Part shown: piece by piece, positions 1 to 40,518 of the stretch
Numbering within the stretch: position 1 is the stretch's first letter
How the letters are laid out: each line of letters begins with the position of its first letter
IMG/VR virus record: IMGVR_UViG_3300042901_002340
DNA length: 64,000 nt
Source of the DNA: a virus
Lineage: Duplodnaviria > Heunggongvirae > Uroviricota > Caudoviricetes
Strand: one strand, 5' to 3'
Notes under the pieces: model-generated
The model's database searches: none
What the model was told of the DNA's origin: nothing
Seen by the model: only the letters and a program-made list of their open reading frames with translations
Translations under genes and position numbers: made by a program

Positions 1-506
1 GGTGTGTAATCCATTACGCCCTCTTGTATATGAAATAGACATTTTTTAAATTCTGATCTTATACGTGTTGCATCATCCTCGTTGAAGAAATCATCTATGA
101 AATATTCTACCGATGGTATACCTGTTGATATAGTTGGGGATAAAGTTAAAACAGAATCGTCATCAAGAACATTAAGATTAGATATAATATGATTTATTGT
201 ATATGCAGGGATAAGTACATCATTATCCAATTTCAATATGTATTTATATCCATTGGTTTTTGAATATTCTATAGCATATCTGACTTTTGGTAGATAATTG
301 CTCTGCGGACAATCGACGTATGCGCACTCGAAGTCTATTCCGGAATCGGTGAGATTTTCTGTGTAGTAAGAAGAATCGGGATCAGAATTTACTATCAGTA
401 ACTTGATCTCTTTTATTTGCCCACATTTTTCTATTTCTTTTTTAATTTTATCAAAAACAAAATATCTATCGTTGCTCGTTAGATAAAATATTAATAGTTT
501 ATTCAT
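1..506 (-). CDS. Partial glycosyltransferase-like protein (runs off left edge)
   Basis: Manual translation from ATG at 506: MNKLLIFYLTSNDRYF...YKYILKLDNDVLIP. GT-A-like DxD motif; sits in the GT cluster. Confidence 0.55.
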   Translation of the reverse strand, partial: MNKLLIFYLTSNDRYFVFDKIKKEIEKCGQIKEIKLLIVNSDPDSSYYTENLTDSGIDFECAYVDCPQSNYLPKVRYAIEYSKTNGYKYILKLDNDVLIPAYTINHIISNLNVLDDDSVLTLSPTISTGIPSVEYFIDDFFNEDDATRIRSEFKKCLFHIQEGVMDYT

Positions 507-23636: not shown

Positions 23637-23721
23637 TTTAATGTATGAATATATTTTTTGTATGTTATATATCCCGCGGCCATAAAAAAGTCCGATATTG
23701 TGGATATCGGACTTTTCTTAG

Positions 23722-23791
23722 TAGCGTAACGTGGACTCGAACCACCCCCCAAGCTTATGAGACTTAGATGCAACCTTTACACTTTAACGCA
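23722..23791 (-). tRNA. tRNA-Met(CAT), initiator-like
   Basis: Cloverleaf, loop CT-CAT-AA, 1:72 mismatch; some stems imperfect. Confidence 0.65.
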
Positions 23792-23794
23792 ATT

Positions 23795-23886
23795 TGCTGA
23801 TTAATGAAGATTCGAACTTCAATCCTGTTTCCCCTTTCGCCTCCACGGCTACTCCGTTCTACTGTGCACCTTTACACCATAACCAA
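23795..23886 (-). ncRNA. tRNA-like RNA with aberrant anticodon region
   Basis: Acceptor TTGGTTA/TAATCAG, D-arm, T-arm TGAAG-TTCGAAT-CTTCA; no canonical anticodon arm. Confidence 0.45.
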
Positions 23887-23935
23887 TCGACAGTTTCGAA
23901 CCTGTCATACTTTGAGTAATTAATTCAAAGCTTTG

Positions 23936-24061
23936 TGGGGAAGGGTGGATTCGAACCACCTATTATAACATATGAAATTAATTTTATCCTTCGAAGTAAC
24001 TCAAAATCTTACTACTTATCAAAGAGAACATTGATCAGAGTGTCTTTTTTGTTGCTTCCCC
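23936..24061 (-). ncRNA. Y-RNA-like family member with tRNA ends outside
   Basis: Acceptor GGGGAAG/CTTCCCC and a T-arm enclose the same stem motifs as 32296-32740, in swapped order. Confidence 0.5.
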
Positions 24062-24149
24062 AATTTATTTAAAACCGATATGCTTCATTGCAATTTAATT
24101 TCATGCTAATTTGAAACTTGCAGGGATTTCTCCACTCTTTCAGTTTTAG

Positions 24150-24226
24150 TGGCGGTCCCAGGGGGACTCGAACCCCCGACCTCCGCCGTGACAGGGCGGC
24201 GTTGTAACCAACTCTACTATGAGACC
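24150..24226 (-). tRNA. tRNA-Asp(GTC)
   Basis: Cloverleaf ending in GCCA. Confidence 0.92.
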
Positions 24227-24447
24227 AAATATCCACTGATGAGATAATTCAGTGTGGATGTATCGGTTTTCTTGCTTTCAATAAACCTGCTGGTCTTACC
24301 CGGTGAAATTAGTCAAACTACTGGGAGGCTCTGTTACCTACCTTTTATTTCCCATGAGACCGGCGTTAAGGCTGTCCGGTCCAATAGCCAATCTATTGTT
24401 AAATGAGTCTTAGATCAAAGACTGATGGATATCTCTTATCCATTTAG

Positions 24448-24519
24448 TACTCCCACCGGGAGTCGAACCCGACTTTCCAGGATGAAAACCTGACGTCCTA
24501 ACCGATAGACGATGGGAGC
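24448..24519 (-). tRNA. tRNA-Glu(TTC)
   Basis: Cloverleaf, loop TT-TTC-AT. Confidence 0.9.
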
Positions 24520-24788
24520 GGTTAAGAAATAATGATGGAGTACCCGTCTCGCTCCATTCTTAAGTGCTTCTTCAGTTTTACTGTGCACAGGCACATTCCT
24601 TTGCAGGGGGTGTTGAATTTCTTAATCTACACATGGTTGTCGACACCGATGAGCAGGAAACCCCATTATTTCTATTTGTATATTTTATTGCCAGTTCTTG
24701 ATGCTTCTCTATATTTAGATAAGCTGTTCTATTGTTTCTGCAAGTCTACTCGCTATAAATAGCGGACTGTTTGGAATAAAATAAATTG

Positions 24789-24862
24789 TGGTCCCTGTAG
24801 GGCTTGAACCTACGACCCCCTGATTATGAGTCAGGTGCTCTAACCAACTGAGCTAAGAGACC
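24789..24862 (-). tRNA. tRNA(CAT), probably Ile2 (lysidine type)
   Basis: Cloverleaf, loop CT-CAT-AA; Ile2-like acceptor GGTCTCT/AGGGACC-A. Ile versus Met assignment is inferred. Confidence 0.8.
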
Positions 24863-25210
24863 GTTATTAAAAAAAAGAAATATCCAAACCACTTTCACAT
24901 CCCTTTACTCTTTGGTTTACCAGTCTTGCGTGACTGTGCTGGTCTAATCTCATTTCTGATATTAGAACGGTCTATTGCGTCAGGGTATGGCAACCAATAG
25001 ACTTGGACCTCTCCAAAAATATTTCTTTTAATTCTTTATGTTAATGAACGTTATTTTGTTTATTATTATATTGCAAAAGTATGATATTCTTTCGGGATAA
25101 AAAAATTATTTTTGATATTTTTTTGAATCTTTATTGTCTTATGATCCTTAATAATTACATTGCAAATTTATGAATTATTTTTGAAATAAAAAAATATTTT
25201 TTGATATTTT

Positions 25211-25873: not shown

Positions 25874-25926
25874 TTCTATACTTTAATTTAGATTATATAT
25901 CCAAATTAAAGTACGAAAGAGCGCCG

Positions 25927-26012
25927 CGGAGATGAGAGGATTCGAACCTCCGCGGCGAATGAACGCCGAACGGTTTAGCAAACCGCTGCAGTACCACTAT
26001 GCTTACATCTCC
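25927..26012 (-). tRNA. tRNA-Ser(GCT)
   Basis: Cloverleaf with long variable arm, G73. Confidence 0.9.
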
Positions 26013-26067
26013 GAATACAAGCCCAGAAAATTGCGCATGCTGAGCAGAGGCGTTCTGGGAATTGTTG

Positions 26068-26154
26068 TACCCCGAGCCGGAGTCGAACCGGCACGCTCCT
26101 TTCGGAACACCAGAGTTTAAGTCTGGGGCGTCTAACCTGTTTCGCCATCGGGGC
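26068..26154 (-). tRNA. tRNA-Leu(TAA)
   Basis: Cloverleaf with long variable arm. Confidence 0.9.
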
Positions 26155-26164
26155 ATTATTTTTT

Positions 26165-26851
26165 CTAGAAATATTTCATTTTCATTCCTAATTTCCAACC
26201 TATGGAAACGTAGTATTCAATATCTTCTTTTTGTATTCTAATATTTTTTTCGTATTCTGTATTATAAACCCAGCATTTTCCATACTGTGAATTTTTTTCT
26301 CCCTTTTGATTTATTGAATTTTTATTACCGATTGTTTTTTTTGCCTCCTCTGTATGGGATCTGTTCAAAAATGCAACCGCTGCTGATTTTTTTAATTTTT
26401 CAGATTTTTCCGGATCTCCCCACATTTTTCTGGAATTTTCTGACATAGTAATACTCATTTGCATCTTTCTTCTTTTTGAATATTCCTGATCATTTTCCAT
26501 CAGCCATTTTTGTCTTTCTCTTGATCTTCTTCCTAGCTCTATTTGAATTTCTAAAGACCATCCTCCACCTCCACCAGGTTGCAAATTCATGCACATCGGA
26601 TCATTTAATAGATCCTCGTTAACCAATTCAATTTCTCTATTTCTTAAAGATTCACGGTCTTCGAAATATTCTAGAATTTCCTTCTCATGTACTTCTAAAC
26701 CATGTTTTCTTATGGAATTTCTTATTCTTTTTCCACCCCCCATATAACCATCATCTAGATTATGAGTAGAGTGCATACCTATATAATATTTACCATTCTT
26801 TGTATTGGTTATCTTATAGATATAATGGAACTTTTTTTCTTTTCTTGCCAT
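26165..26851 (-). CDS. GIY-YIG (Seg-like) homing endonuclease
   Basis: Paralogue of 25211-25873; identical first ~29 aa. Confidence 0.85.
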   Translation of the reverse strand: MARKEKKFHYIYKITNTKNGKYYIGMHSTHNLDDGYMGGGKRIRNSIRKHGLEVHEKEILEYFEDRESLRNREIELVNEDLLNDPMCMNLQPGGGGGWSLEIQIELGRRSRERQKWLMENDQEYSKRRKMQMSITMSENSRKMWGDPEKSEKLKKSAAVAFLNRSHTEEAKKTIGNKNSINQKGEKNSQYGKCWVYNTEYEKNIRIQKEDIEYYVSIGWKLGMKMKYF

Positions 26852-26904
26852 TTCTATACTTTAGTTTATCTTATATATCTAAACTAAAGTACGAAATCGC
26901 GCCT

Positions 26905-26980
26905 GGGTGAATGACGGGAATCGAACCCGCGACCTTTGGTACCACAAACCAACGCTCTAACCGACTGAGCTACATCCACC
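26905..26980 (-). tRNA. tRNA-His(GTG)
   Basis: Encoded G-1, C73, loop TT-GTG-GT. Confidence 0.9.
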
Positions 26981-27035
26981 ATGTTACGATCTATAAGGCC
27001 AGATCGTCAGCCAGTGCCTTCTCCCTGGGGAGATG

Positions 27036-27314
27036 CTATTTATTGTCTCTATTTTTTCCTAGATGGTAACCATCACAGAAGATGCATTTATAAACACTAA
27101 AGTATTTTCCATGTTTTCTCTGCATTGCGTCTGCTGCTTTTCTGCCTGATTCCTTTGTTGGAAATCCTTGCTTTGCCTTGCCGTCCATTTTATAATGACT
27201 TCTCTTATCGAATAAACCTAAAGCGTTACCTGTTATGAAAAAATTTCGAAATGCTCTTTTTAATGGAAGCTGATCCTTTAGACCAAGTATCACATTTCTT
27301 AATTTAATTTTCAT
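27036..27314 (-). CDS. Hypothetical basic protein with YKCxxCxxYH motif
   Basis: ORF track. Confidence 0.6.
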   Translation of the reverse strand: MKIKLRNVILGLKDQLPLKRAFRNFFITGNALGLFDKRSHYKMDGKAKQGFPTKESGRKAADAMQRKHGKYFSVYKCIFCDGYHLGKNRDNK

Positions 27315-27750
27315 TTTTTCCTGTCTTATTAAATTCCTCTTCTGTTACTTTTTTAATTGGTGTAAATAAAGCGAATCCATCATCGTCTTCGAAGTGATTG
27401 CATTTATCCATGAAATAATTTCCCATTTTAAATCTCCAATACTCGAAGACATTCATAGCGTCGTTCCATTTGCCAATTTTTGCTCTTCTATGATCTCCAA
27501 GATAGAAAGCTCCATCTTCAAGTTTAGCTTTTGCAATTGCTCCAGCTTCGATAAGCCTTGGTATATAATATTCCTTATACTCTTTCTCACCGACTCTTGG
27601 TATTTCAGGTACATCCTGGGGTGTTTTAAAAGGTTTAAGATTGTCCCATCTTTTTCTTCTAAGCTCCTCAAAATTTCTTCGATCAATTTCCCTTTTTTCC
27701 TCAAGGAACTTTCTGATCTGTTCGATTTTTTGTTTTTTGTCTTGTTCCAT
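27304..27750 (-). CDS. Hypothetical protein
   Basis: ORF track; overlaps the next gene. Confidence 0.65.
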   Translation of the reverse strand: MEQDKKQKIEQIRKFLEEKREIDRRNFEELRRKRWDNLKPFKTPQDVPEIPRVGEKEYKEYYIPRLIEAGAIAKAKLEDGAFYLGDHRRAKIGKWNDAMNVFEYWRFKMGNYFMDKCNHFEDDDGFALFTPIKKVTEEEFNKTGKNEN

Positions 27751-27769
27751 GATTACTAATTTTTATTAG

Positions 27770-27852
27770 AGGTGCCTGTCAGATTCGAACTGACGTGAGA
27801 TTTCTCTAGCGGTTTTGCAGACCGCCCCTTTCAGCCACTCAGGCAAGGCACC
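27770..27852 (-). tRNA. tRNA-Cys(GCA) with long variable arm
   Basis: Loop CT-GCA-AA, U73, variable hairpin GAGA-AA-TCTC. Confidence 0.85.
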
Positions 27853-27857
27853 GTGAT

Positions 27858-28517
27858 TTATTTCCTTCTATATTTCCTTCCATTCCCTTTATTACCTCCC
27901 TTATATGTTGGTAATTGTGCATCGCAATTTGGACATATTAATCTAAAATTGCTTTCGAGATTATTTTCTGAATTGCCATCGATATGATCTAATGTTATTG
28001 GTATTTTTTTACCATTCCATTCCATATTTTTGCAAATTTCACATTTATGGCCTCTCTCTAATATAAGTAATCTTTTTATTGTGCTTCTATTTGTATCCTT
28101 TAGTTCACCATTTTTGATCTTTTCTAATTGTACTTTATTATAATGATTTCTATAGCATACATCGTTACAAAAAACTGTTCTTTTATCCAGTTCTTTATTG
28201 CAATTTTTACATATCTTTTTTTTAGATGTTCTTTTTACCGCCCATCTATCAACCCCAGAATTGGCGCAAGTTATCGAGCAAAATTTTCTAGCAGCTTCTT
28301 TTTTTGTTGTACCTACAGTGAATTCTTTTTTACAGTTTTCACATATTATTTTATTGACTCTAAGATGTGTATAATCTTCCTGTTTTATTTTATATTTTTT
28401 GTATAAATGCTGTTTTACTGCTGAATATGTTTTGTTAAATAGTAAGGATATTTCATTGTAAGTCTTTCCTTCAATTAGCATTTTACTAGCTGCCTCTGAT
28501 TCATTTTGTGTCCACAT
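27858..28517 (-). CDS. HNH endonuclease with Zn-finger repeats
   Basis: LDHIDGN...NFRLICPNCD. Confidence 0.85.
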   Translation of the reverse strand: MWTQNESEAASKMLIEGKTYNEISLLFNKTYSAVKQHLYKKYKIKQEDYTHLRVNKIICENCKKEFTVGTTKKEAARKFCSITCANSGVDRWAVKRTSKKKICKNCNKELDKRTVFCNDVCYRNHYNKVQLEKIKNGELKDTNRSTIKRLLILERGHKCEICKNMEWNGKKIPITLDHIDGNSENNLESNFRLICPNCDAQLPTYKGGNKGNGRKYRRK

Positions 28518-28566
28518 ATATAAATGTTTTATTCGTATATATCCAAAAATGGATTTCGAATATTAG

Positions 28567-28649
28567 ATCCGGGTGTCGGATTCGAACCGACGTCGACTTT
28601 CGTCTCCTGATTACAAATCAGGTGCAATGGACCGCTATGCGAACCCGGA
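28567..28649 (-). tRNA. tRNA-Thr(TGT) with long variable arm
   Basis: CCTGA-TTTGTAA-TCAGG anticodon arm; variable hairpin GAC-GAAA-GTC. Confidence 0.8.
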
Positions 28650-28657
28650 ATATTTTG

Positions 28658-28743
28658 AGGAGAGAGGGAGGATCGAACTCCATGCAGTTACCCGCACCCG
28701 ATGCTTTCCAGGCATGGCCTATCACCGTTTAGGATCACTCTCC
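28658..28743 (-). tRNA. tRNA-Ser(GGA)
   Basis: Loop CT-GGA-AA, long variable arm, U73. Confidence 0.8.
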
Positions 28744-28857
28744 ATTGAGGGTTGACATATAGAATCTTTCCCAGTTTCTGCGGTATAGGTACCATCATGG
28801 GCTCCGTTAATTAATTCGTCTTTATAACCCCATACGGAACAAGCGGGGTAACCTAAG

Positions 28858-28945
28858 CGGAGAGGGTGGGATTCGAACCCACGGGAGTAATGAGCTCACA
28901 CTAGATTTCAAGTCTAGGCGCTTTTGACCACTTGCGCACCTCTCC
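28858..28945 (-). tRNA. tRNA-Ser(TGA)
   Basis: Loop CT-TGA-AA, long variable arm, G73. Confidence 0.9.
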
Positions 28946-28975
28946 AATTTACTTTTACAATATTTCAATGAACAA

Positions 28976-29008
28976 TAAAAAAGGCCTCCTTTTCGAGGAG
29001 ACCTTTTT
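28976..29008 (-). terminator. Attenuator terminator 1
   Basis: AAAAAGGTCTCCT-CGAAA-AGGAGGCCTTTTTT. Confidence 0.8.
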
Positions 29009-29031
29009 GATATTTATTATGTTACCTAATA

Positions 29032-29124
29032 TCAATACTCTCTCCTCATCACAATAGACGATTCACAAGTTGAACTTGTGTGATCTAAATGTAATGTATC
29101 TAATATGTACTGTATTTGTGACAT
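29032..29124 (-). CDS. Leader peptide 1 (30 aa) MSQIQYILDTLHLDHTSSTCESSIVMRREY
   Basis: Manual translation; lies between promoter motifs and the terminator; its 3' end is complementary to the terminator 5' arm. Confidence 0.75.
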   Translation of the reverse strand: MSQIQYILDTLHLDHTSSTCESSIVMRREY

Positions 29125-29281
29125 GATTTTTATTTTTATAGATTTATATATCTAATTGATTTTAATATTTTATGCAAATTTAAGGAAATGTTTCGAATAA
29201 AAAAAATTATTTTTGATTTTTTTCAAAATTTATTTAAAAAAAGTCACTCTTGCGAGTGACTTTTCATTTTTTTGTGATTTA

Positions 29282-39468: not shown

Positions 39469-39645
39469 ATTATTGATAAAGTTGTTTTTGTTTAATAAAC
39501 CTGTCTGGTTTATTAAAACTTTTCCACTTTATCGTATTGATTTAGTTTCCATTATGTCAAAGATCCTTCTTTATCTGCATCGCAAATGTATGAAATGCTT
39601 TCGAATTAAAAAAATATTTTTTAATAATTTTTTTAATTTTATTTG

Positions 39646-40208: not shown

Positions 40209-40243
40209 AAAAAAAAAACTCCAGATCTTTTAGGATCTGGAGT
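40209..40243 (-). terminator. Attenuator terminator 2
   Basis: ACTCCAGATC-CTAAAA-GATCTGGAGT followed by a long T-run. Confidence 0.85.
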
Positions 40244-40279
40244 AAAAATATTTAATGCTTATTTGACTAGTGCTTTACA

Positions 40280-40408
40280 TTAAATTATATTGTGACCTCC
40301 AGATCCCTTGCTGTACCCATTATACCATTTGGCAATGCCCACCTGATTAAATGGTGCAACGCTCTGCGGCATAAACGGTTTTACAATATTTCTGAAAGTT
40401 GTTTTCAT
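40280..40408 (-). CDS. Leader peptide 2 (42 aa) MKTTFRNIVKPFMPQSVAPFNQVGIAKWYNGYSKGSGGHNII
   Basis: Manual translation; contains GGATCTGGAG, complementary to the terminator 5' arm. Confidence 0.75.
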   Translation of the reverse strand: MKTTFRNIVKPFMPQSVAPFNQVGIAKWYNGYSKGSGGHNII

Positions 40409-40518
40409 TGTGTTTTTAAATTATAGATTTATATATCTATGTTGATTTTAATATTTTATGCAAATTTAGGAAAAAGTTTCGAATAAAAAAAATTATTTTT
40501 GATTTTTTTTGAATTATT

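Follow-up and report, generated by a model that had tools for sequence, protein, structure and literature searches.

A leader-peptide cassette that probably gates a phage tRNA block by multivalent transcription attenuation

A short leader ORF precedes a block of tRNA genes on the minus strand of a phage genome, and this cassette (cassette 1) most probably acts as a multivalent ribosome-dependent transcription attenuator that gates the block (probability roughly 0.9). The element is real and conserved. Features that define an attenuator are found together: a short ORF with a usable start lies between a promoter motif and the tRNA genes, its control codons are related to the downstream genes, a terminator with a mutually exclusive antiterminator overlaps the end of the ORF, and, in silico, a stall at the control codons frees the antiterminator and passage blocks it. 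Geometry, exclusive predicted folds, a strong start context, and co-variation in relatives point to attenuation of the trp/his type, as a sequence-only reading of the locus had proposed. We infer translation, coupling, read-through, and trigger from the sequence match, the alternative folds in silico, conservation, and co-variation.

Genomic context and host

The window is the whole stretch of DNA that was analysed, a 64,000-nt part of a source record that represents a complete virus of 430,120 bases with direct terminal repeats. ARAGORN detects 28 tRNA genes genome-wide, and 28 of 28 lie inside the window on the minus strand. They form three groups, namely Arg(TCT)/Leu(TAG), a Pro-to-Gln block (block 2), and a Ser(TGA)-to-Asp block (block 1). 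The proximal tRNA genes of block 1 are interspersed with endonuclease-like and other ORFs. The CAT tRNA at 24862-24788 has an acceptor stem of the Ile2 type with C4:G69. The leader ORF, the strong terminator, and the downstream tRNA order described in the sequence-only reading were recovered at the same positions and on the same strand. Its eleven-tRNA block holds from Ser(TGA) to Asp, and the final "Met" is only a degenerate initiator-like tRNA that ARAGORN reports at a lowered threshold. This degenerate CAT tRNA (~23791-23718) and more tRNA-like fragments at 24060-23860 are missed at the default score. No other terminator was found on the minus strand from 29005 to 23714. The coordinates of all features are given in Table 1.

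Table 1. Features of cassette 1, its sister cassette, and the tRNA blocks of the window.
Feature	Position	Strand	Remarks
Terminator hairpin ending the upstream Ro60/TROVE gene	29241..29262	-	would insulate cassette 1
Host-type promoter motif	29175..29206	-	T-tract 29206-29199; TAnnTTTG box 29182-29175
ATATATAA motif	29144..29151	-	candidate second promoter, presumably phage sigma-dependent
Translation initiation region	29125..29144	-	A-rich, Shine-Dalgarno-less
Leader ORF 1	29032..29124	-	30 codons/30 aa
Putative sensing window	29056..29106	-	codons 7-23, 17/17 read by block-1 tRNAs
Intra-leader hairpin, 1:2 type	29047..29096	-	candidate pause or anti-antiterminator hairpin
Antiterminator 5' strand GAGGAGA	29041..29047	-	codons 26-28; pairs with 29001-28995
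Antiterminator inner helix	29007..29035	-	29035-29028 with 29014-29007; spans stop codon
Intrinsic terminator	28977..29008	-	core 29003-28983; U-tract 28982-28977; 5' arm is the antiterminator 3' strand
Block 1, Ser(TGA) to Asp	28945-24150	-	ten tRNA genes (ARAGORN)
Proximal block-1 tRNAs	25926..28945	-	Ser(TGA), Ser(GGA), Thr(TGT), Cys, His, Leu(TAA), Ser(GCT)
Two internal host-type promoter motifs	25074..25200	-	boxes 25170 and 25081
Distal block-1 tRNAs	23718..24862	-	Ile2-like CAT, Glu, Asp, degenerate initiator-like CAT
Terminator closing block 1	23688..23714	-	
Sister cassette	40218..40468	-	promoter box 40468-40461; terminator 40243-40218; before Pro...Gln block
Leader ORF 2	40408-40280	-	42 codons
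Leader-2 antiterminator strand	40306-40297	-	10-bp helix
Block 2, Pro...Gln	40195-32639	-	16 tRNA genes (ARAGORN)

A motif consisting of a T-tract and a TAnnTTTG box occurs in ~60 copies before genes of the genome, and the box is one that we take to be of the Bacteroidota -7 type. Gene starts of the phage are A-rich and lack a Shine-Dalgarno signal. Since such promoter motifs and starts are generally associated with this phylum, the host is likely to belong to the Bacteroidota. The genome encodes three sigma70-region-2 proteins (G000 C1:181486, 263506, 271187), and no RNA polymerase beta subunit was found in it; therefore, the phage should use the host RNA polymerase. Further encoded are a T4 Rnl1-type RNA ligase (10319), a CCA/poly(A)-type nucleotidyltransferase (37712), and Ro60, and no TilS (ATP_bind_3) or RtcB gene was found in the genome.

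Several other observations concern the arrays. Two non-coding stretches with tRNA-like pieces, 32640-32290 and 31280-30860, lie upstream of a 307-aa gene and of the Ro60 gene, respectively, and are candidate Y RNAs. The 307-aa protein (32201-31278) has no Pfam family and no match in cultured phages, is present in 83 viral contigs, and is often encoded immediately 3' of a tRNA array. Three related GIY-YIG-like ORFs (26851-26165, 25873-25211, and 38058-37399) are each located directly 3' of a tRNA gene, behind a ATATATAA motif in an inverted repeat, and are mostly missing in close relatives. In related arrays, ARAGORN detects ochre suppressor-like tRNAs with anticodon TTA (L003:7918, L021, L081, L103/L157) and tRNAs with anticodon CTA (L010, L011, L014, L261). 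A conserved non-coding stretch of ~250 nt with a terminator is found 3' of the Ro60 gene in L004 (11575-11900), L005, and L009.

Codon content of the leaders

Codons 7-23 of leader 1 had been read as 17 consecutive codons served by the downstream block. This is exact: 17 of 17 are decoded by block 1 under standard wobble, provided that the CAT tRNA is Ile2. Each of the ten block-1 tRNA species has at least one codon within codons 2-23, a window picked post hoc, as was 7-23, in which 19 of 22 codons are served (binomial 1.5e-6 against a background of 0.358, block 1 reading 35.8% of phage codons). This places leader 1 at the top among 2738 ATG ORFs of the genome. The whole ORF, which involves no window choice, has 20 of 29 codons served (p=3e-4). 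Off-block codons also occur in leader 1, all of them outside the run, namely Gln at 3 and 5, Tyr at 6 and 30, Ile-ATT at 24, Val at 25, Met at 26, and Arg at 27-28. AUA is present at codons 4 and 7, and block 1 holds the Ile2-like tRNA.

A sister cassette precedes block 2. The promoter regions of leaders 1 and 2 are 91% identical, and the codon set of leader 2 is complementary to that of leader 1 and matches block 2. Leader 2 contains AUU and an internal AUG, and block 2 holds Ile(GAT) and an elongator-like Met tRNA, so that the split extends down to isoacceptors. When 24 tRNA species were shuffled between the blocks, the joint match of both whole ORFs was reached in 6 of 100,000 permutations (Fisher 6e-6). 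An accidental fit of codons in a short ORF of an AT-rich spacer could draw on the fact that window 7-23 was picked after the fact, and on one other run of at least 17 block-1 codons (30 codons) in the six frames of the genome. The whole-ORF tests, the sister cassette, and the independent arrangements in relatives reject chance, which is scarcely credible as an explanation.

Initiation signals and internal promoters

The promoter motif of leader 1 scores 38 with the PWM, the median over 60 sites in the genome being 37.6. The start context ranks at the 98th percentile of phage gene starts and at the 99.9th percentile of all ATGs. The ATATATAA motif is also found before leader-1 homologues and before inserted endonuclease genes.

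The sequence-only reading had cautioned that promoter motifs at ~25070-25190 could serve the distal tRNAs. Two such motifs are indeed present (25170 and 25081), and one is conserved: in six relatives, a single host-type promoter motif precedes the CAT tRNA of the Ile2-Glu-Asp group. Because of this conservation, probably only the proximal tRNAs depend on the attenuator alone. The distal tRNAs probably receive a basal supply from the internal promoter motifs, topped up by read-through.

Host-type promoter motifs also occur inside block 2 at 39590 (before Lys) and 34070 (before Arg-ACG) and are conserved in close relatives. The Arg(TCT)/Leu(TAG) group has a motif directly before it (44550), likewise conserved in close relatives, and no leader. 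A 59-aa lipoprotein-like ORF with Asp-Thr-Thr repeats (44827-44648), conserved in relatives, lies before tRNA-Arg(TCT). This ORF was flagged as a leader by the cassette detector described below, rejected on account of a promoter motif 3' of its own terminator, and left out of the statistics.

RNA structure and stall modelling

Leader-1 RNA is strongly structured compared with shuffles (z -4.2), and the intra-leader hairpins of the two leaders of the genome give z -3.6 or -2.8 against codon shuffles. The leader-1 antiterminator is predicted at ~-17 kcal/mol. Folding bore out the proposed GAGGAGA:TCTCCTC pairing and the mutual exclusion of terminator and antiterminator. The antiterminator had been proposed in two parts; exclusion of the terminator core is due to GAGGAGA:TCTCCTC alone, whereas formation of the TTGATATT:AATATCAA helix is compatible with this core.

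A ribosome was placed at each leader-1 codon in three models with equilibrium folding. With a transcript ending before the 3' arm, the antiterminator survives until the A site has passed codon 23-24 and is lost thereafter. If the 3' arm and the U-tract are both available for pairing, the leader-1 terminator wins at all positions. The most realistic model holds the U-tract in the hybrid, and its edges shift by one codon with the assumed footprint. Here, P(terminator) is 0.99 in leader 1 without a ribosome, but the antiterminator forms (0.75) when the transcript ends before the 3' arm. In the hybrid model, the terminator is predicted to form for stalls at codons 2-6, to be suppressed at 7-11 and 16-22, and to be fixed from 23; for stalls at 12-15 it returns through a competing fold. 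Four homologues have on-windows of 7-22, 7-20, 7-22, and 6-23 at equilibrium, each with at most one gap. The distant homologues in L157, L141, and L216 have stronger terminators, and termination is predicted at every stall position at equilibrium. Since the gap at codons 12-15 exists and these three never switch at equilibrium, the switch must be partly kinetic. As the predicted on-window spans ~7-22 and the switch is off from 23, both of its edges coincide with the matched run, and the off-block codons of leader 1 lie outside the on-window. For leader 2, read-through is predicted at stall codons 2-30.

The strong structure of the leader and the adjoining Ro60 gene would also suit an RNA switch that works independently of translation, by T-box-like binding of uncharged tRNA or through a protein, for which the adjacent Ro60 and a phage antiterminator would be candidates. 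In a T-box, a single specifier codon is read, compared with 17 in frame here, and start, frame, and stop of the leader are conserved. Rfam gives no T-box or riboswitch match, and none to T-box stem I, specifier loop, or antiterminator bulge at the gathering score or at E<=10. The Ro60/TROVE gene ends directly upstream of cassette 1; in relatives, its position relative to the cassettes varies, being upstream, downstream, or apart. Such a switch is therefore highly improbable. Since the Ro60 tree mixes the arrangement types and transfer of the gene from phage to phage is possible, no claim of co-evolution with the cassettes is drawn from it.

Conservation and co-variation in relatives

The leader-1 peptide is the same in four close relatives. 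The four sites that vary are all synonymous, compared with an expected synonymous share of 0.2, and the spacer has indels in these relatives. The four synonymous changes are modest evidence and no proof of translation because they also fit the leader hairpin. In L173, L157, L141, and L216, the leaders differ by whole codons only, preserving the frame. In L103/L157, L141, and L216, the sequences of both strands of the antiterminator helix differ and the helix is nevertheless restored. The L157 block contains Thr(GGT) but neither Leu(TAA) nor Ile2, and the leader before it has a matched run of 17 codons that contains ACC and no Leu or Ile.

A cassette detector blind to codon content, which looks for a short ORF followed by a terminator and a tRNA, was positive for 67 of the 126 loci that have at least eight tRNAs, many of these loci being incomplete or redundant and the calls for L150, L117, and L180 doubtful. 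Of 68 distinct leaders, 66 have upstream sequence that sequesters the terminator 5' arm, whereas this holds for 8 of the 48 ordinary terminators taken from this genome. Leaders of split arrays match their own split. Of 14 multi-block loci, 12, which represent four arrangement types, reach p<=0.0022 by within-phage permutation; two further types give p 0.016 and 0.054. Loci of one type are kin and not independent, and the effective count is four to six arrangements. Across 22 multi-block leaders, one over-long L015 ORF being left out, 75% of the codons between codon 6 and the structure-defined switch match, compared with 37% beyond the switch, where the value falls abruptly. Thus the ORF is conserved and, as the sequence-only reading anticipated, leader codons co-vary with tRNA content.

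These data bear on the possibility that the attenuator responds in general to translation being slow or blocked, be it through antibiotics, ribosome damage, or infection stage, and that the codon match is a by-product and not the tuned input. In favour of such a sensor, any stall within the window should yield read-through. Leaders of single-array phages mostly use 18-20 amino acids, more than same-length windows in ordinary proteins, which would suit such a sensor, as would the response of the Anabaena trn operon to general translational stress (PMC8421152, PMC10272220). However, a general sensor would need no matching of leader and block, and split arrays have leaders split to the isoacceptor level. 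AUA is present in seven of eight leaders with Ile2 in the block, compared with 5 of 14 without, and L157, whose block lacks Leu(TAA) and Ile2, has neither Leu nor Ile in its sensing run. A general sensor is thus an unlikely explanation.

Alternatively, the ORF might encode a functional small peptide with an ordinary gene end, the tRNAs being expressed through leak or from their own promoters. The peptide sequence is invariant in five close genomes, gene callers annotate the ORF, and internal promoter motifs exist. Yet the peptide matches no family, and peptides at the equivalent position in other phages are unrelated in sequence and nonetheless track tRNA content. Furthermore, no host-type promoter motif is found between the leader-1 terminator and tRNA-Ser(GCT), and antiterminators are rare at ordinary gene ends. 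This makes a functional peptide very unlikely.

Among cultured phages, no match to leader 1 and no close relative was found. The LR745206 region around Ro60 contains no tRNAs and the CcrColossus region one tRNA, neither being informative. A scan of genome contigs gave only seven loci, with no cassette among these.

Proposed mechanism and trigger

For multivalent attenuation at cassette 1, the following sequence of events is proposed. Host RNA polymerase would initiate at the promoter, and a ribosome would load onto the leader. During normal decoding, the ribosome would pass codon 23 and cover GAGGAGA, the terminator would fold, and transcription would end ~30 nt upstream of tRNA-Ser. A missing or uncharged tRNA for Ser, Thr, Cys, His, Leu(UUR), Ile(AUA), Asp, or Glu would stall the ribosome at about codons 7-22, where it would melt the leader hairpin and leave GAGGAGA free. 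Free GAGGAGA would pair with the terminator 5' arm and allow the polymerase to enter the tRNA block. New tRNAs would then relieve the stall, so that the tRNA pool would be under negative feedback. As to transcription-translation coupling in Bacteroidota, the presumed host phylum, a recent paper goes only as far as finding the NusG:S10 interface conserved (PMC13753749).

During infection, tRNAs are cleaved by host nucleases, a loss that phage tRNAs can make good (PMC10264068, PMC7824862). Since most tRNA species are sampled one to three times in leader 1, the leader appears suited to deep loss of one tRNA. Depletion of tRNA is favoured over amino-acid starvation as the selected trigger, because starvation would flip the switch, but extra tRNA cures only tRNA loss. 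It is somewhat favoured that phages audit the working tRNA pool codon by codon, with blocks induced by stalls at their own codons, chiefly after the action of host anticodon nucleases or host-tRNA decay. This would amount to an inducible counter-defence with block-specific feedback and, if true, to a role of attenuation that is not described for tRNA genes.

For 50 years, it has been an open question why phages carry tRNA genes (PMC10264068). If the sensor is made of the codons of its own array, the tRNA genes would be kept in reserve against loss of working tRNAs. Attenuation would be extended from amino-acid supply to tRNA supply, and phage annotation would gain an overlooked class of regulatory mini-genes. 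Leader codons can help to separate Ile2 from Met among CAT tRNAs, and the cassette may serve as a compact reporter for tRNA-cutting defence systems.

Comparison with known systems

Like trpL, hisL, leuL, and pheL of E. coli, cassette 1 combines a short leader ORF, a candidate hairpin of the 1:2 type, an antiterminator, and an intrinsic terminator, and the position of the ribosome would decide the outcome. The mechanism of pheL attenuation has been described, and classical leaders sense partial starvation by single-codon runs (PMC3082878). Unlike these systems, the cassette is phage-encoded, would control tRNA genes and not biosynthetic enzymes, and samples ten tRNA species instead of a run of one amino acid. 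The genes downstream of leader 1 are tRNAs and endonuclease-like ORFs, not amino-acid biosynthesis or synthetase genes. No match at the curated threshold was obtained with the catalogued leader families (Rfam Trp/His/Leu/Thr/Phe_leader and NCBIfam leader peptides); Phe_leader reaches 30.6 bits and Thr_leader 23.8 bits against a cut-off of 55 for each, both over the terminator only.

In T-box riboswitches, the choice between terminator and antiterminator is likewise set by tRNA charging, but the tRNA binds one specifier codon directly and no ribosome is involved, whereas the mechanism proposed here is ribosome-dependent. The closest counterpart in function is the Anabaena trn operon, also a long mobile tRNA array, which stays silent as long as translation is not stressed; its DNA-binding repressor TrcR acts at initiation, in contrast to the attenuation proposed here (PMC8421152, PMC10272220). 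Attenuation, leader, or terminator are not mentioned for this operon in PMC8421152. Phage counter-defence arrays are similar in that cleavage of host tRNAs is compensated by phage tRNAs together with RNA ligase and Ro60/TROVE (PMC10264068, PMC7824862). Regulated expression of the array is not described in these two papers, and "attenuat" is absent in both. The full-text literature searched, with weak coverage of subscription journals, holds no published case of attenuated tRNA genes or arrays and, in line with the sequence-only reading, no multi-codon attenuator for a phage tRNA array. The mechanism is known for amino-acid genes, and what would be new is tRNA genes as its target.

Multivalent attenuators are represented by thrL (Thr, Ile), ilvGMEDA (Ile, Leu, Val), and ilvBN, and the pheST attenuator with its leader pheM controls part of the translation machinery. 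As in thrL, ilvGMEDA, and ilvBN, one leader would read several amino acids; their number is two or three in the known cases and eight in cassette 1, and it reaches up to 20 in relatives with a single array. Unlike in thrL, the ilv operons, and pheM, the output of cassette 1 would be the adaptor RNA itself, so that the loop could correct the loss of tRNA.
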